Positions 60 through 19,441 of a stretch of DNA of 64,000 bases are shown in pieces (position 1 is the stretch's first letter; each line of letters begins with the position of its first letter). The DNA lies in the NCBI RefSeq assembly GCF_963921235.1, contig NC_086107.1, positions 116,500,001-116,564,000 of the forward strand, read 5' to 3'. The translations under genes and the position numbers were made by a program. The stretch comes from Mobula hypostoma (lineage: Eukaryota). Under the pieces are notes generated by a model. The model searched no databases and was not told the DNA's origin. It saw only the letters and a list, made by a program, of their open reading frames with translations.

Positions 60-241
60 AACACGAGAAATTCTGCAGATGCTGGAAATCCGAACCATCA
101 GACACAAGATGCTGGAGGAACTCAGCAGGTCAGGCAGCATCTATGGGAGCGAATAAGCAGTTACATTTGGAGCTGGCTCTTCAGGAATGTCATCTGTTTA
201 CTCTTTTTTGTAGATGCTGCCCGACCTGCTGAGCTCCTCCA
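60..241. mobile_element. Degenerate palindromic Penelope-type element (same family as 11441-11667)
   Basis: ggaggaactcagcaggtcaggcagcatcta ... tagatgctgcccgacctgctgagctcctcc inverted arms; the central ribozyme cores have decayed. Confidence 0.7.
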
Positions 242-5034: not shown

Positions 5035-5675
5035 AATTAGATAGAAAGATATTTTATTGATCCCAAAGAAAATGAGTGTCACAATAACATTACAAATATA
5101 CAAATTTTAATATACAAACATCACAGAAATACAAATATTAGATGAGAACTAAGAAAGAATAAATGATAAATTACCACGAACAGTCTGACAGGAGGGGGTC
5201 ATCACCTCCCCGGCAGTACGTTTATTCATTACAGAGCCTAATGGCTGAAGGTAAAAATGACCTCACATCGCACACTTTGGAGCAGCGCAGTTGTCTTAGT
5301 CTATTACTAACAGTTCTCCTCTGTTCAGCCAAGGTGACATGCAGAGGGTGAGAAACATTGTCCAGAGTTGCCAGGATTTTCCGTAGGGTCCTTTGTTCTA
5401 CCACAGCCTCCAGTGTGTCCCATTTGACTCCTAAAACAGAGCCAGCCTTCCTAATCAGTTTATTGAGCCTGTTGGCATCTCCCGTGTTGATCCCATTGCC
5501 CCAGCACACCTCTGCATAGAAGATTGTCCAGGGGACAATGCACTGGTAGGACATATGAAGGAGAGGCCTGCATACTCTAAACGACCACAGTCTCCTCAGG
5601 AAGTAGAGGTGACTCTGGCCCTTCTTGTACACAGCCTCTGTGTTGGTGCTCCACTCCAGTCTCATCCAGGTGCAC
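5035..5675 (-). mobile_element. Rex1-like LINE 3' fragment (same family as 10925-11915)
   Basis: ORF 5222..5665 (LYFLRRL…SHPLH…RSFLPSAIRL), closely similar to the + copy near 11 kb. Confidence 0.85.
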
Positions 5676-5814
5676 CTTAGTTAGAGGATTGAGAAGCTTT
5701 TAAAAAACCAATAGAAGGCAACTAATATCAGACTGTTAGAAAATGACACTGGAGAGGTACAAAAGTCTTAGACATGTATATATAGCTAGGCTGCCTGAGA
5801 CTTTTGCACAGGAC

Positions 5815-10790: not shown

Positions 10791-11494
10791 TGCCAGAACT
10801 GTCGACCAGAGGGCACAGGTTTAAGGGGAGACGGGAGAGGTTTAATAAAACAGGGGCTTGAAGGACAACTATTTCAGCCAGAGGGTGGTCTGTATGTGGA
10901 AAAAACTGCCAGAGGAGGTGGATGGTGCAAGCTGAATCATCTGCAGCTCAGCATCAGTCAGACAGAGGAGATGGTGATGGAGTTCAGGAAGACTAAGCCT
11001 GCTCTGCTCTGTTACTATTGATGGCGAGGACATGGATGTACTGAAGACCTACGAGTACCTGGAGGAGCACCTGGATGACAGACTGGAGTGCAGCACCAAC
11101 ACAGAGGCTGTGTACAAGAAGGGCCAGAGTTGCCTCTACTTCCTGAGGAGACTGAGGACCTTTGGAGTATGCAGACCTCTCCTTCACATGTTCTACCAGT
11201 CTGTTGTTGCCAGAACCATCTTCTATGTGGTGGTGTGCTGGGGCAATGGCACCAACACCGGTGATGCCAATAGGCTCAATAAACTGGTTAGAAAGACTGG
11301 CTCTGTTATAGGAGTCAAACTGGACACACTGGAGGCTGTGGTAGAACAAAGGACCCTACGGAAAATCCTGGCAATTCTGTACAACGTTTCTCACCCTCTC
11401 CATGCCACCTTGGCTGAACAGAGGAACACTTTTAGTAACACTCACAACACGCTGGAGGAACTCAGCAGGTCAGGCAGCATCCGTGGAAAAGATC

Positions 11495-11530
11495 GGTCGA
11501 CGTTTCGGGCCGGAACTCTTCGTCAGGACT
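11495..11530 (-). ncRNA. Minimal type I hammerhead ribozyme motif (opposite strand)
   Basis: Reverse strand reads aGUC-CUGACGA-a-gaguuccggccc-GAAAC-GUC-GACc; stem I GUC/GAC; one mismatch in stem II. Confidence 0.6.
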
Positions 11531-11538
11531 TCGTCAGT

Positions 11539-11573
11539 ATCCTGATGAAGGGTTCTGGCCCGAAACGTCGACC
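11539..11573 (+). ncRNA. Minimal type I hammerhead ribozyme motif
   Basis: CUGAUGA (11542-11548), stem II gggtt/ggccc, GAAAC-GUC with predicted cleavage after C11569; stem I is only ~2 bp (tc/ga). Confidence 0.6.
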
Positions 11574-11939
11574 GATCGTTTCCATGGATGCTGCCTGACC
11601 TGCTGAGTTCCTCCAGCGTGTTGTGAGTGTTGCTCTGACCCCAGCATCTCCAGAGTATTTTGTGTTTACTTTTAGTAACAGACTCAGACAACTGGGCTGC
11701 TCCAAAGAGCACTTTCTGAGGTCATTCTTACCCTCGGCCATTAGGCTCTATAATGAGTCACACTATAGACGGGAAAGTGATGACTACCCTCCTGTTAGAG
11801 TGTTTGAGGTAACTTATGATGTTATTCTTAGTTCTAATATTTGTAATATTTCTAATACGTGCACTTGTTATGCTACTGTGACTCTGTAATTTCCTTTGGG
11901 ATCAATAAAGTATCCATTAACAACACTTAAAAGACACTC

Positions 11940-12520
11940 AGAGGGAACTGGGCCGAACACGGGCTGATGGGAATCTGGGTCGGCAGCGGCCCGACGGGCC
12001 GAATGGTCCGAGTCGCGGGTTTCGGATGGAACCGGTCGCCCCCCCCCCACATCCGGGGCGGCGAATAGACGCGCCCAGACCGGGGGGGGGGTACTTTCCA
12101 TTTGGCGAGCAGGGGCTGAGCAGAGCGATTCGCCGGAAGGAGTCCAGGGCCTACATCCATCCGCAAAGAGATTCTTATCTTCTGGCGTATCGCACCGATA
12201 TAAACCTCACCCGGCGAGAGGGACCAGCTCCCCACGGGATCGAGCGTCCCCCTGTGAACTGGGAGTTGGTGGTGCAGTCCTCCAGCCCCGGCTTTATAAG
12301 CGGCGGCGGCCATTGCGCGCTCTGCAGAGGCGGCCCGAGCTCCGCCCCGGGGAGGAGGGAGATCCGTGCGGCCGGAGTGCGGTGGCGACCGCCGGCTCTC
12401 ACCGCCGCCATGGCCAACGTTTTCCTGTTCGTGCCCAACCTGATTGGTGAGAATTACTCCGGTGGGCGGGACCGGACACGTCAATCATGGGGTTACGTTC
12501 GTTGGGTAGGCGGGGTCACA
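11940..12520 (+). promoter_or_regulatory. CpG island / CDIPT promoter and 5' UTR
   Basis: Sharp rise in GC and CpG density compared with the flanking repeats, spanning exon 1; TATA-like tttataag at 12293-12300; GC-box-like motifs. Confidence 0.75.
12410..12446 (+). CDS. CDIPT: CDIPT coding exon 1 (MANVFLFVPNLI G-)
   Basis: Consensus Kozak gccgccATGG; donor G|gtgaga; FLFVPNLIG motif. Confidence 0.95.
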
Positions 12521-15500
12521 GAACCCCGATTGTCCTGGGATCTTCCTCTGTAAACCACCCAACACTCACAGATCTCCCTCTGCAGCCTCTGACTGTCCTG
12601 GGATCTTCCTCTGCAAACCCCTCCCCAGCACATGCAGATTCTCCCTCTGACTCCTGGGATCTTGCTCTGTAACCCCCCCCCCCCCCGCCACACACACGGA
12701 TCTCCCTCTGCAGCCTCTGACTGTCCTGGGACCTTGCTCTGTAACCCCAGATCATAGAAGGATCCCCGTTATTCCCCTCTCTTCCAGGGGCACTGGCATC
12801 TTTTGCCCTTGGCTGTGACGCCTCTGTCTCCCCACAGGTTACGCACGGATTGTGCTGTTGCTGCTGTCGCTGTGGCTGATGCCCAGGTCCCCGCTTCCAG
12901 CTGTTTGCTGTTACCTGGGCAGCGCCTTGCTTGACGCTTTTGATGGATACGCAGCCCGCCTACTCAATCAGTGTAAGTTTGGTCCCCTTGACCTCTGACC
13001 TCACCCAGACCTAAGCCCTGACCTCCAAAGGCTCCACCTGAACTGTGAACCCCTGACTTCCCCATGAATCTTATCCTCCTCTGACGGACTCCAATCACCC
13101 TAAACCCTGACCAACGATCTTCAATAACTTCCTCAAAATGTGACCTCCCTCCTCCATCATCCCCAATTTCTGAACATTCTGATCTGCAAGCTCTGCTAAA
13201 TCCTGACTCCCCAACTTCTCCCGACACTGAACCCCAACCTCCCCTAACTTCTGCCCCCCAAAAAATTCCAGAACCATTGATCTCATCCCCAACCTCTTAA
13301 TCACCCCCATCTCAACTGAAACCTGACCTTTGACCTCCTTTTGCTGACCTTTCTGGAGCCCTCTGACCCTGACCCTTTGAATTCCAAACCAGCCTCCCTG
13401 ACCACCAGCTTCCCTCAACCACCCGTCCCCAACTTTCCTGAACCCTCTGAACTCTGACAATGATCTCTGACCTCAGACCCTTAACCTTACTGCACCCCTT
13501 GACCCTGTTGTCTGAACCTCCCCACCCCCACGTCTAACCTAACCTCCCTGAACTTTGTGAACCCAGTCTGACCTTCCACTCCTTTGCCCCCCCATTTCCT
13601 CCCCCCTCTCTCCCCATTCTCCCCCACCCTCATGGTTCTGTCGCTCCCCCCACAGGCAGCCGCCTGGGCTCGATGTTGGACATGCTGACAGACCGTTGCT
13701 CCACCCTGTGCCTGCTGATACAACTGAGTGTCCTGTACCCGTCGTACACACTCTGCCTGCAGCTCAGTGCTGCCATCGACATCGCCAGCCACTGGGTCCA
13801 CATGTACAGGTACGGGCAGGGCTGGGGGGGTTGTGCCAAAGCGTGCAGGGGTCAGGGGAGGGAGGGTGAAGGGTGCTGGGGAGTGTGGGAGAGGGTTTGT
13901 GGTAGGGGGGTCCCGAGGGTGTGGGGTGAGGAAGGGGAAGGAGGGTATAACTGCTTCCCAACTCTTGAAACCCCATTGTAATCCCGAGACTGTCCCTCGC
14001 TGCCCTCCCCCAGCCCCACTTTGTCAGGTGTGCATGGGGTGATGCGTAGGTCTCAGGAGTGGGTCAGAGAACCGACTCACCCCTCCCTTCTGTCTTCTCC
14101 ACACTCTGTCCAACAGTGTCAACCTTCGGGGATCCGCAAGCCACAAACAGATCCACCGCGATGGGAATCGTATCCTGCATTACTACTACTCCAGTAGGGT
14201 AGGTGAAACCTCATCTCTGTCTCCCCCTCCCCTCCCTCCCTGTCTCTGTACCCCCCCATCTCCATCAGAGGTGTCTCCATTTCACAGCAAGAGGGGAGAC
14301 TTAACAAACAACTCGATGGTTTACGACATTAAAAGTCTGTTGTGTCGCTTTTTCTGAGCTCTGTGCCGGAAGATCTCAGCTCTCTGGGCACACAGCCGTC
14401 TCCCACGACACACCGATCTCCTGCCCGGACACTTGACCTTTGATCCGCCCGTCTCCAGAGCCACGGGATCCCAGCCCTCCGAAGGCGAGGGGATCTCTTA
14501 GGCCGAACCCTTGGCATGTTGAATAACGGCCAGTCATGAAACCCCGAGGACGGGTCCCATTCCCGCAAAGGACCGAAGTCGGCGTGTAACTCCAGGTCAG
14601 GGTCTTCAAAGGAACCTGAAAGGGAAAACCAGAGATATTAAACGCGGAAATAGAGCTGTTTCTGAAGATGCAAGGAAAGGAGTCGCCGTTAGGCGCCATT
14701 AACCCTCTTAAGCTCCCCCTCCCCATCTCTGTCACCCCCTCCTGTCTTGTATCTGTTACCACCTCTATCCCTTATATCTCTCCCCATCTCAGTCACTCCC
14801 TCCCCCCAATCTCTGTCACCCTCACCTTCCCGTATGCCCCATTTATCTCCGTCACCCCCTTCCCTCTCCTATCTGTCACCCCCTCCCTCCCGTACACCCC
14901 TCCCTTCCTACTCTACACCCCACCCTGTCTCTTGCCCCTCTGCTCTCCTATTCGTGTGTCCACTGTCTCTCTTCCCTCCCCTCAACCTATTCCCCTGATA
15001 ATCTCACACCCGACGCCCCTCCCTGTCTCCGTTGCTCCCCCCACCTGTTGTCCTGCCTATCTCACACCGTGGTGCCTGGATTTCTTAGGGTGATGCCTGG
15101 TCTCTCTCCCCCCTCACAGACTGTGCTGTTCCTGATGTGCGCAGGGAACGAGCTGTTTTACCTGCTGCTCTACGTGTTGTACTTCACCGAGGGGCCCACA
15201 GGTAAGTCTGTCTCTTCCATATCCACCAGTCTATCTGAAGTCCAGTTACAATGCTACTGCCGTTCTCCCTCGTCCTCTTTCCCAAAGCATCTTGTCCCGA
15301 TGTACCAGTGCTCGGCCCGTGACCGTAGAAACCAGGGAGCCTTGTGCTCATGGCTCAGCGCGTCATGGCAGCCGTCCTCCTATTGACAGGTTTTGTCTGC
15401 AGCCAGCATAATCGAAGACCCAGATACCCCCTCTCCCATCAGCTCTCCCTCCCACATGGTTCTTGGGCCAAGTGTCTGATTGATCTGTCCCCTCAGTAAA

Positions 15501-18306
15501 TCATCTCCCCTTGTCCAATTCCCATCTCACACTCTCCCTCTCTCTGTCACACTCTCCCCATCTCCCTCTCTCACACTCTCCCTCTCTCTCTCACACTCTC
15601 CCCATCTCCCTCTCTCACACTCTCCCTCTCTGTGTCACACTCTCCCCATCTCCCTCTCTCACACTCTCCCCATCTCCCTCTCTCACACTCTCCCTCTCTC
15701 TCACACTCTCCCCATCTCCCTCTCTCACACTCTCCCTCTCTCTGTCACACTCTCCCCATCTCCCTCTCTCACACTCTCCCTCTCTCTGTCACACTCTCCC
15801 CATCTCCCTCTCTCACACTCTCCCTCTCTCTCTCACACTCTCCCCATCTCCCTCTCTCTGTCACACTCTCCCCATCTCCCTCTCTCACACTCTCCCTCTC
15901 TCTCACACTCTCCCCATCTCCCTCTCTCACACTCTCCCTCTCTCTCACACTCTCCCCATCTCCCTCTCTCACACTCTCCCTCTCTCTGTCACACTCTCCC
16001 CATCTCCCTCTCTCACACTCTCCCCCTCTCTGTCACACTCTCCCCATCTCCCTCTCTCACACTCTCCCTCTCTCTCTCACACTCTCCCCATCTCCCTCTC
16101 TCTGTCACACTCTCCCCATCTCCCTCTCTCACACTCTCCCTCTCTCTGTCACACTCTCCCATCTCCCTCTCTCACACTCTCGCTCTCTCTGTCACACTCT
16201 CCCCATCTCCCTCTCTCACACTCTCCCCATCTCCCTCTCTCTGTCACACTCTCCCCATCTCCCTCTCTCACACTCTCCCTCTCTCTGTCACACTCTCCCC
16301 ATCTCCCTCTCTCACACTCTCCCTCTCTCTGTCACACTCTCCCTCTCTCTGTCACACTCTCCCCATCTCCCTCTCTCACACTCTCCCTCTCTCTGTCACA
16401 CTCTCCCCATCTCCCTCTCTCACACTCTCCCTCTCTCTGTCACACTCTCCCCATCTCCCTCTCTCACACTCTCCCTCTCTCTGTCACACTCTCCCCATCT
16501 CCCTCTCTCTGTCACACTCTCCCCATCTCCCTCTCTCACACTCTCCCTCTCTGTGTCAGACACTCTCCCCCCCCCCCCATCTTTCTGTCTCTCACGGTCC
16601 CTCAGACGACTGGAGAATTGCAAACGTCACTCCACTCTTTAAGAAAGGGGGAAGGCAGCAGAAGGTAAATGATAGACCAGTTAGCCTGACCTCAGTGGTT
16701 GGGAAGATGTTGGAGTCAATTGTTAAGGATGAGGTGATGGAGTACTTGGTGACACAGGACAAGATAGTACAAAGTCAGCATGGTTTCCTTAAGGGATAAT
16801 CTGCCTGACAAACCTGTTGGAATTCTTTAAGGAGATTACAAGTAGGATAGATGAAGGGGATTCAGTGGATGTTAAATATTTGGACTTTCAGAATGTCTTT
16901 GACAAGGTGCCACACGTGAGGCTGCTTACCAAGTGAAGAGCCCATGGTATTACAGGAAAGTTACTAACATGGTTAGAGCATTTGCTGATTGCTAGGAGGC
17001 AGTGAGTGGGAATAAAGGGATCCTTGTCTGGTTGGCTGCCAGTGACTAGTGGTGTTCCGCAGGGGTCGGTCTTTTTACGCTGTGTATGAATGATTTAGAT
17101 GATGGAATAGATGAGTTCGTTGTCAAGTTTGCAGATGATATGAAGATTGGTGGAGGAGCAGGTAGTGTTGAGGATACAGGTAGGATGCAGAAGGACTTAG
17201 ACAATTAGGAGAACAGGGAATAAAGTGGCAAATAAAATACATTTTGGTAGTAGAAATAAATGTCCAGTCTATTTTCTAAATGGAGAGAACATCCAGGAAT
17301 CTGAGATGCAGTGGGAGCTGGGAGTCCTTGTGTAGAACACCCTGAAGGTTAACTTGCGGGTTGAGTCAGTGGTGAGGAAGGCAGATGCCATGTTAGCATT
17401 CATTTCAAGAGGTCTAGAATACAAGAGCAGGGATGTGATGCTGAGGCTTTATAAGGCACTGGTGAGGCCTCACCTTGAGTATTGTGAACAGTTTGGGGCC
17501 CCTCATCTTGGAAAAGATGTGCTGGCATTGGAGAGGGTCCAGAGGAGGTTCACAAGGATGATTCCAGGAATGAAAGTGTTATCATATGAGGAACATTTGA
17601 TGGCTCTAGGTCTGTACTCGCTGGAATTCAGAAGGATGAGGGAGGATCTCATTGAAACCTTTCAAATGTTGAAAGGCCTAGACAGAGAAGATGTGGAAAG
17701 GATGTTTCCCATGGTGGGAGAGTCCAGGACAAGAGGGCACAGCCTCAGGATAGAGGGGCGCCCTTTCAAAACAGAGATGTGGAGAAATTTCTTTAACCAG
17801 AGGGTGGTGAGTTTGTGGAGTTTGTTGCCACGTGCAGTTGTGGAGGCCAGGCTGTTGGGTGTATTTACGGCAGAGATTGATAGGTTCCTATTTGGGCATG
17901 GCATCAAAGGTTACGGGGAGAAGGCCGGGAACTGGGGTTGAAGAGGAGATTTTTTAAAAATGACAATGGCAGAGCAGGCTCGATGGGCCAGATGGCCTAA
18001 TTCTGCTCCTATGTCTTATGGTCTTGTGTTTCACGTGCTCTATGCTGCCTCCCCGTCTCACACACTCCCTCCCTCTGTGTCACACTCCTTCCTGTCTCCC
18101 TGCCTGACACTCCGTCTCTCTCCCCTGCAGTTGTAGGACTGGCTGTTGGATGGATCCGTTTCCTGGTCTGGCTCACCGCCCCGGTCTCAGTGACCAAGAC
18201 CCTGATCAGCCTGGTCCAGATGGTGTCCGCAGCCCAGGACTTGGCCCAGATGGACCAGAGGGATCACCATGGGCAGCTGGATTCGTGCAGGGACAAGGCG
18301 GAATGA
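12410..18306 (+). CDS. CDIPT: CDP-diacylglycerol--inositol 3-phosphatidyltransferase (PI synthase), spliced CDS join(12410..12446,12838..12972,13656..13809,14117..14198,15120..15201,18131..18306), 666 nt, 221 aa
   Basis: Manual splicing gives an open frame MANVFLFVPNLIGYARIVLLLLSLWLMPRSPLPAVCCYLGSALLDAFDGYAARLLNQCSRLGSMLDMLTDRCSTLCLL...SHWVHMYSVNLRGSASHKQIHRDGNRILHYYYSSRTVLFLMCAGNELFYLLLYVLYFTEGPTVVGLAVGWIRFLVWLTAP...DSCRDKAE*. The CDP-alcohol phosphotransferase motif DxxDGxxAR...GxxLDxxxD is intact, all introns are GT-AG, and the motifs match vertebrate CDIPT as recalled. Confidence 0.96.
12525..12752. repeat. ~60-bp tandem repeat, ~4 degenerate copies, in CDIPT intron 1
   Basis: Recurring gatctccctctgcagcctctgactgtcctgggatctt..tctgtaa. 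Confidence 0.8.
12838..12972 (+). CDS. CDIPT: CDIPT coding exon 2 (135 nt)
   Basis: Acceptor ctccccacag|; encodes YARIV...LLDAFDGYAARLLNQ; donor T|gtaagt. Confidence 0.95.
13656..13809 (+). CDS. CDIPT: CDIPT coding exon 3 (154 nt)
   Basis: Acceptor cccccacag|; encodes SRLGSMLDMLTDRCST...IASHWVHMY; donor AG|gtacgg. Confidence 0.95.
14117..14198 (+). CDS. CDIPT: CDIPT coding exon 4 (82 nt)
   Basis: Acceptor ctgtccaacag|; encodes VNLRGSASHKQIHRDGNRILHYYYSSR; donor AGG|gtaggt. Confidence 0.92.
14282..14712 (-). mobile_element. CpG-rich interspersed repeat in intron 4 (LINE 5' UTR-like, unclassified)
   Basis: A mixed-composition, CpG-rich block abruptly interrupts a pyrimidine-rich intron; the reverse strand starts aatggcgcctaacggcgactcc. 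Confidence 0.4.
15120..15201 (+). CDS. CDIPT: CDIPT coding exon 5 (82 nt)
   Basis: Acceptor ccctcacag|; encodes TVLFLMCAGNELFYLLLYVLYFTEGPT; donor G|gtaagt. Confidence 0.95.
15525..16560. repeat. C/T-rich minisatellite in intron 5 (cacactctccccatctccctctct alternating with cacactctccctctctctgt)
   Basis: About 1 kb of tandem 18-26-nt units; almost no G on the + strand. Confidence 0.95.
16604..18026 (+). mobile_element. 5'-truncated CR1 LINE in CDIPT intron 5, sense orientation
   Basis: DDWRIANVTPLFKKG…RPVSLTSVVGK…KFADD…ORF 17354..17941; CR1 3' UTR ending ttctgctcctatgtcttatggtctt. Confidence 0.92.
18131..18306 (+). CDS. CDIPT: CDIPT coding exon 6 (terminal, TGA at 18304-18306)
   Basis: Acceptor tcccctgcag|; encodes VVGLAVGWIRFLVWLTAPVSVTKTLISLVQMVSAAQDLAQMDQRDHHGQLDSCRDKAE*. 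Confidence 0.92.
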
Positions 18307-19023: not shown

Positions 19024-19395
19024 TGCCTTTGTCACCCAGAGACTGGTGTTGTTATTAAGTTCGGGGGGTGGGGAGGGATTGAGGTGGATGGGAGGGGAGT
19101 CGGCTGTGCTGGCGTTCCACTTATGACTGTGTGGCTGAGCACGGACAGCTGCAATACCATATTCGAGCTGGCGGACGACACCAGCATTGAGGAGGGAGAT
19201 TGTAACAACCTCTCGCTCAACACCAAGACCACGGGGATCATCACTGACTTCGGGAGAAGGAAACTGGAGGTCCATGAGCCGGTCCTCGTTGGAGGATCAG
19301 GGAGAGAGGGAGGGGTTATTATTCCAGATGACCTGTCAGTGTTGTTACGGAGGAGGCATGGCAACGCCTCTATTTCCTCAGCAGTTCGTGGAGAT

Positions 19396-19441
19396 GAGAC
19401 AGACTTACCTGTGGGACCCTCAGTGAAGTACAACACGTAGA
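19396..19441 (-). other. Inverted 46-bp copy of CDIPT exon 5 3' end plus splice donor
   Basis: Reverse complement tctacgtgttgtacttcactgagggtcccacaggtaagtctgtctc matches 15169-15214 at 44/46. Confidence 0.93.

Follow-up and report, generated by a model that had tools for sequence, protein, structure and literature searches.

Insertions of Penelope-like retroelements (PLEs) are described, in the available sections of PMC8557442, as carrying an inverted 5'-truncated copy, a tail of 30-40 bp at one end and a target-site duplication (TSD). The examples in the accessible part of PMC3846280 include an inverted pseudo-LTR (pLTR) that is 37 bp shorter, a 31-bp tail, TSDs of 8-10 bp and head-to-head junctions. 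For the PLE of Anolis, the portion of PMC11167929 at hand reports that the purified protein nicks and extends both strands in vitro and prefers AT-rich DNA, that reverse transcription starts from two internal RNA sites whose spacing corresponds to the tail, and that RNA left unprocessed serves as the main substrate, the hammerhead cutting only with the protein. The minimal hammerhead ribozymes are characterized, in the excerpted text of PMC4209133, by CUGANGA, an additional nucleotide that separates position 9 from 10.1, a G10.1-C11.1 pair, GAAA, a palindromic CG at 15.2/16.2 and a UC cut site, and single ribozymes of this type showed no cleavage in vitro. Non-LTR retrozymes have been reported in one chondrichthyan too, as given in the available part of 10.64898/2026.07.22.740005.

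The window analysed here is the whole stretch of 64,000 nucleotides from Mobula hypostoma. Upstream of a CDIPT-like gene, it contains a 227-bp palindromic insert with one hammerhead motif on each strand. We consider this insert to be, probably, a 5'-truncated, dead insertion that stems from a very abundant endonuclease-positive (EN+) PLE, in which two hammerhead-bearing 3' ends lie head to head within an older LINE. The features of the locus, together with a second copy of the family in the window, are as follows.

60 to about 185, minus strand: long arm with tail of the second copy, aligned to the insert family.
About 186 to 241, plus strand: short arm of the second copy, aligned to the insert family.
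10978..11440, plus strand: left part of the 3' coding remnant of the host non-LTR retrotransposon (LINE), with a PF09004 match.
11428..11440, no strand: left 13-bp TSD copy, whose last 7 nt match the element end; junction 11427-11668.
11441..11529, minus strand: short, tail-less inverted arm, probably a 5'-truncated PLE 3' repeat, beginning 3 nt before the CUGA box.
11499..11526, minus strand: minimal hammerhead core, with the predicted cut between 11499 and 11498.
11529..11539, no strand: centre, a putative junction scar consisting of a 9-nt re-copy and 2 nt without an evident template.
11540..11634, plus strand: long arm, probably a 5'-truncated PLE 3' repeat, beginning 2 nt before the CUGA box.
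11542..11569, plus strand: minimal hammerhead core, with the predicted cut at 11569/11570.
11635..11667, plus strand: one-sided 33-nt tail, family sequence and not flank.
11668..11680, no strand: right 13-bp TSD copy, a direct repeat.
11668..11914, plus strand: right part of the host LINE remnant, in the same reading frame, with AATAAA at 11904.
12410..12446, plus strand: first coding exon of CDIPT (ATG 12410, donor GT 12447), given as context and outside the element.

The preliminary description had reported a 227-bp insert that is flanked by a perfect 13-bp duplication and cleanly splits a LINE, and both statements were borne out. The direct repeats at 11428-11440 and 11668-11680 are perfect, with 227 bp between the copies, and the two halves of the LINE are in frame. 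A LINE paralogue at 5048-5677 on the minus strand spans the site unbroken, aligning to both flanks (88.6% and 73%) and containing the 13-mer region once. In four of four sequencing runs (4, 5, 3 and 4 contigs), contigs joined 11427 to 11668 with 13 shared letters (11 in X17); these contigs are most likely other LINE copies and not an empty allele of the locus. The uninterrupted paralogue and the contigs that skip the 240 bp together indicate that the 13-bp repeat is a true target duplication. No tandem repeat was reported at the insert site. The LINE piece matches PF09004 (ALKBH8_N) in Pfam with an E value of 1.4e-9. This domain is one that we take to be linked to Rex1/Babar LINEs, and the host LINE is presumably of that kind. 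A literature search on the link between Rex1 and DUF1891 found no paper naming DUF1891 among those listed.

The insert had been placed ~750 bp upstream of the CDIPT start; the upstream placement holds, and the ATG at 12410 lies 730 bp from 11680. The gene at 12410 is CDIPT-like, as its exon 2 matches PF01066 (E 1e-5) and the nearest Atlas cluster is PI synthase (0.90). Exon 3 gave no PDB sequence match, and neither exon 3 nor the later pieces gave a Pfam match. A CpG island with a GC content of 0.65 and a CpG o/e of 0.96 occupies 11930-12500. The insert (11441-11667) itself retains 15 CpGs at an o/e of 0.89, compared with 0.16 and 0.33 in the host LINE, which may reflect either a young insertion or shelter by the adjoining CpG island. 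Several other features were noted in the window. The peptide YVLYFTEGPTGKSVSS of a probable CDIPT exon end, at about 15150-15230 on the plus strand, recurs at about 19390-19440 on the minus strand; this recurrence, ~4 kb downstream in LINE-like sequence, is a short copy of an exon/intron boundary in inverted orientation. Beyond the CDIPT exons, more than 43 kb (20400-64000) is a G-rich satellite (G 57% and C 2.7% on the plus strand) with units of about 17-40 bp, in which the commonest spacings between exact 60-mers are 1719 and 7180 bp and which possibly lies inside or just after CDIPT. A 27-bp minisatellite with 16 copies was found at 1852-2281, and a CT-rich 44-bp minisatellite with 23 copies at 15525-16570.

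The inverted arms (11434-11528 and 11540-11634) are 95 nt long, 94% complementary and 11 nt apart. The insert had been said to consist of two arms of ~92 bp; the arms are present, at 95 nt, and the insert also has the 33-nt tail and the 11-nt centre. Seven of the 95 nt of the left arm fall inside the left TSD copy. The last 7 nt of that copy pair with the element sense strand at 11628-11634 through six Watson-Crick pairs and one T-G pair, and this match of the TSD end to the element end is likely to be priming microhomology. The tail was assigned to the family because it aligns both to the copy at 60-102 and to the loose-end consensus rows behind 11634/11637; from the rows behind 11617, many family copies in the run contigs end near 11631. 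At the centre, minus-strand 11537-11529 is an exact 9-nt repeat of minus-strand 11526-11518, the start of the left core. Both arms start 2-3 nt upstream of CUGA and include sequence 5' of the cut site. Since they pass through the cut site into the core, they were likely copied from uncleaved RNA. Five internal positions of about 88 differ between the arms, which is compatible with one template or two. A-to-I editing was considered for these differences, four of the five being G-U pairs on the plus strand, and was set aside, as CpG decay with ordinary drift fits equally well.

The hammerhead cores are located at 11542-11569 (plus) and 11526-11499 (minus), as had been claimed, and their assignment as minimal type I hammerheads of the PLE type agrees with the features in the available text of PMC4209133. 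Both cores have the conserved C3-A9, G12-A15.1 and U16.1-H17 without helix III and with palindromic 15.2/16.2, an extra nucleotide between 9 and 10.1, and a G10.1-C11.1 pair. The suspicion that stem I is weak in this copy was also correct. The plus core has a stem II of 4 bp (GC, GC, GC, UG) and a stem I of only 2 bp; in the minus core, stem II reads GC, an AC mismatch at the second pair, GC and UG, and stem I has 3 bp. The 4-5 bp of stem I in minimal hammerheads is not reached on either strand because the arms are truncated, and the 5' strand that stem I has in the family itself was not recovered. Using a relaxed pattern for the minimal hammerhead, two matches were obtained in 1-20400, namely these two cores, whereas 200 first-order Markov simulations gave 0.005 on average. 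Rfam covariance models applied to 11000-12200 gave no hammerhead family among eight matches at E up to 10, which would be expected for a motif without helix III. The matches to miRNA families were below the gathering score and were rejected as reflecting the hairpin only.

The insert shows the marks of an EN+ PLE insertion: an inverted 5'-truncated copy at the 5' end, a one-sided 33-nt tail and a 13-bp TSD. Fifteen of 64 parts of the metagenome contigs were scanned with nothing but the core pattern, and 121 loci were obtained, which are at least partly animal, as a GPCR ORF is present in L080. No locus of the insert family was among the 121, the 28-nt core being all that is in common (no blastn match at E 1e-3). 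Stem I around these cores was analysed from 127 matches, 125 of them with full flanks and giving 60 distinct flank pairs. The mean stem I of the distinct pairs was 3.23 bp, as compared with 1.38 ± 0.14 bp after shuffling, and none of 5000 shuffles reached 3.23, a result that is not a probability, the loci being related among themselves and the pattern having been taken from the insert, with stem I outside it. Slid controls gave 0.07 and 0.67. Stem I thus covaries in the loci of other animals that have the core.

Forty of the 121 loci match the RT and GIY-YIG protein of L004 (L004 itself and the neighbouring L003 counted). Of these matches, 38 share the strand of the core and lie no more than 1 kb upstream of it, and reversed loci gave none; over 32 distances, the median from the ORF end to the core is 95 nt. 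The L004 protein has RVT_1 and GIY-YIG matches in Pfam, each weak alone. It also carries a CX4CxxC linker and a CC inside GIY-YIG, which place it in the Neptune/Nematis type as far as the accessible sections of PMC8557442 define it. An inverted partner was found in 19 of the 109 loci with enough flank. In eight of the 19 (seven distinct), a duplication of 10-15 bp was located at the end of the short arm and again 43-53 nt past the long arm, a placement seen in 1 of 340 control pairs; the other 11 (L074 and 10 others) had no convincing TSD of 10 bp or more. The gap between the cores in the inverted loci was 10-738 nt, and in 11 of the 19 it was 10-36 nt. Four distinct loci (L021/L066, L024, L045 and L105) are mini-palindromes like the insert, and L009 and L121 contain PLE coding sequence between the arms. 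This spread, from mini-palindromes to arms that enclose PLE coding sequence, puts the insert at the short end of a continuum. The PLE derivation proposed earlier is supported by the insertion anatomy and by the finding that, in other animals, this core follows RT/GIY-YIG sequence, and from this anatomy and the shared 28-nt core we infer a PLE parent for the insert family.

The depth of the family was determined from Logan contigs of sequencing runs from three organisms (A, B and C). In run X1, the summed contig depth on the arms was 1.5-2.0 million and the depth of the unique CDIPT-promoter contig was 7.66; in X5, the corresponding values were 8.4-11.4 million and 78.4. The ratio of arms to promoter in these two runs is ~1-2.6 x 10^5, a rough value that is not a copy number. 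Solo arms with two 3' end points predominate in the loose ends of the run contigs, and the cross-centre joints vary among those listed. Of the listed contigs from organism B, none spans a junction of the insert uniquely. In the 3' strand of stem I, 4 nt after the cut site, the two arms have a minority letter in common (C at 11573 and G at 11495). This letter has a large share of the depth in organisms A and B and is nearly absent in C, which suggests a younger, likely lineage-specific subfamily. The second fold-back copy, at 60-241, is older; its core is heavily decayed, and its centre is unlike that of the copy at 11428. No RT/GIY-YIG ORF of the insert family was found in the 64-kb window (best tblastn E 0.62). 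The arm-body patterns of the insert gave no match in viral contigs or prokaryote genome contigs, and the hammerhead core pattern gave none in viral contigs. A limited search of the open-access literature found no paper on the insert family in cartilaginous fishes.

From this anatomy, the following mechanism can be proposed. The GIY-YIG nuclease would nick both strands 13 bp apart at an AT-rich site, and reverse transcription would be primed by each 3' end on uncleaved RNA of the element, beginning at one of two internal sites that are separated by about 33-40 nt. In the order of priming that we infer, the top strand would prime with its 7 nt of complementarity at the inner site; the outer start site would give the arm with the tail, and the inner one the arm without it. 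Both cDNAs would stop 2-3 nt beyond the hammerhead core. One of them would slip back and re-copy 9 nt, and the two cDNAs would then be joined head to head, with the hammerhead as a passenger of the parent's pLTR.

An insertion of PLE origin could also have acquired its inverted arm when a single cDNA primed itself or switched templates, or when an antisense template did so, instead of through two primings. Palindromes at inverted junctions are interpreted in this way by Arkhipova et al. in the available part of PMC3846280, and a hairpin of 9 bp closed by a 4-nt loop is possible at the centre of the insert (11528-11549). The origin of the arm from a single priming is doubtful, with a real chance of being correct, as the re-copied 9-mer has the C of the left arm at N7 and not the T of the right arm, the short arm ends in the 7-nt complementarity to the target, and the purified PLE protein extends both strands according to the accessible portion of PMC11167929.

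A further suggestion can be made about the hammerhead, which we offer only tentatively and regard as rather unlikely: the uncleaved minimal motif may act in PLE retrotransposition as a signal for reverse transcriptase to stop and for the cDNAs to be joined, and not as a cutter. It is suggested by the positions of the two cDNA ends, 2-3 nt past the core, by the stutter of one of them, and by the 11 of 19 inverted loci, from unrelated families, that fold back within 10-36 nt of the core. It is subject to ascertainment bias, as the loci were chosen for an intact core and truncations skew short. The fold-back junctions at 10-36 nt upstream of the core were observed in L007, L021/L066, L024, L033, L045, L076, L105 and others, all from other animals. 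If the suggestion is true, self-antisense hairpins would be mass-produced, and those beside promoters like that of CDIPT would give dsRNA that silences the family.

The preliminary description had regarded the palindrome as a non-autonomous, Penelope-derived family. Such a family could propagate as a unit if a palindromic master were transcribed and the PLE enzyme put the entire transcript back into the genome. The minority variant common to both arms, which implies a young subfamily, fits such self-propagation, and according to the available sections of PMC3846280 and 10.64898/2026.07.22.740005, respectively, pLTR sequences can be mobilised in trans and tandem non-autonomous PLE derivatives have been published. 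However, the shared variant is equally expected when both arms stem from the RNA of one subfamily. The centre carries a local re-copy scar, the centre of the second copy in the window differs from it, and centres vary among the contigs and among unrelated PLE families, in which the same layout occurs with 10-738 nt between the cores; the inverted arm is therefore more simply a by-product of insertion. In addition, the left arm and the target share 7 nt at their boundary, an overlap that priming at this site would produce, and a hairpin as stable as that predicted below would be a poor template for reverse transcriptase. Movement of the palindrome as a unit is improbable on these grounds, and that part of the earlier interpretation is not supported.

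When the full insert was folded as RNA, the plus strand formed one long hairpin of -198 kcal/mol (z -24; none of 200 shuffles was as stable), and the minus strand one of -183 kcal/mol (z about -25). Forcing the hammerhead fold costs +56 kcal/mol on the plus strand and +50 kcal/mol on the minus strand, and the core bases are predicted to be almost all paired. Competition of a long hairpin with cleavage had been anticipated. The competition is supported, at a predicted ~50 kcal/mol; it is one-sided and not balanced. Only one sense core would be present per transcript, although the motif requires a dimer, and on either strand the head-to-head layout has the antisense arm transcribed ahead of the ribozyme. 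With a stem I of 2-3 bp and one mismatch in stem II in addition, the hammerheads of the insert are unlikely to be active, and the prediction is that a hairpin of about 90 bp sequesters them. Folding energies are model predictions, and a bound protein could refold the insert RNA.

These considerations bear on the idea that the minus-strand hammerhead is functional and cuts upstream antisense RNA from the CDIPT promoter. The insert lies 730 bp upstream of the ATG and adjoins the CpG island, no AATAAA or ATTAAA occurs on the minus strand of 11681-12409, and the CpGs of the insert are kept (o/e 0.89). The minus core is, however, the more damaged of the two (stem II mismatch and 3-bp stem I), it is preceded by the antisense arm and lacks a dimer partner in cis, and single minimal hammerheads were not cleaved in vitro in the available data of PMC4209133. 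Where a genome contains some 10^5 arms, chance alone would place one near a promoter. Such a function is very improbable. Run X17, taken to be an RNA run, has no contig over 11919-12377, which says nothing either way on antisense transcription. If upstream antisense RNA from CDIPT passes through the insert, it would be present as a dsRNA hairpin and not as cleaved RNA. Finally, a DNA-transposon MITE with long terminal inverted repeats and an incidental likeness to a hammerhead would also be short, palindromic, non-coding, TSD-flanked and very abundant, but it is hardly credible here, as the inverted repeats are not terminal (33-nt one-sided tail), the loose ends are dominated by solo arms with two 3' end points, and the core is a PLE pLTR motif whose stem I covaries elsewhere.

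Compared with the EN+ PLEs (Penelope/Poseidon, Neptune and Nematis) covered by the accessible parts of PMC3846280 and PMC8557442, the insert has the same head-to-head copy, with a short arm that lacks the 33-nt tail, a TSD of similar length, an AT-rich target and a nested position in a LINE. It differs in having no ORF between the arms, an extreme truncation, and its TSD is 13 bp as compared with 8-10 bp in the rotifer examples of PMC3846280. Among the minimal hammerheads of metazoan PLEs (Cervera and de la Pena 2014, PMC4209133, as far as its available text goes), pairs on opposite strands are known at distances of 100-700 bp, whereas the cores of the insert are only 15 nt apart and stem I is truncated to 2-3 bp; cartilaginous fishes do not appear by name in that text. 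In the available portion of the work on the Anolis carolinensis Poseidon (Frangieh et al. 2024, PMC11167929), two reverse transcription starts downstream of the hammerhead likewise give the tail, and the same nicking and extension of two strands and insertion of uncleaved RNA probably apply to the insert. On the other hand, the ORF of the Anolis Poseidon starts inside the hammerhead, whereas the metagenome relatives have the core ~95 nt after the stop codon and a linker of the Neptune/Nematis type, and the region in which reverse transcription starts is AC-rich in the Anolis element and GU-rich in the sense strand of the insert. The non-LTR retrozymes, as presented in the accessible part of Li et al. 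2026 (10.64898/2026.07.22.740005), are also non-coding and PLE-derived and have a type I hammerhead. However, they are head-to-tail tandems in which a dimer is possible in cis, whereas the insert is head to head and cannot form one; tandem units in head-to-tail order, each with a type I hammerhead, were not found in it. The motif, the layout and the likely mechanism of the insert are of published kinds. By itself, the insert carries little weight, since stubs of this known class are very numerous. It preserves at one locus a neat record of the mechanism that work in vitro has suggested for PLEs, with two nicks, two reverse transcription starts and an uncleaved template, and its abundant family offers a large natural dataset on the role of PLE hammerheads.
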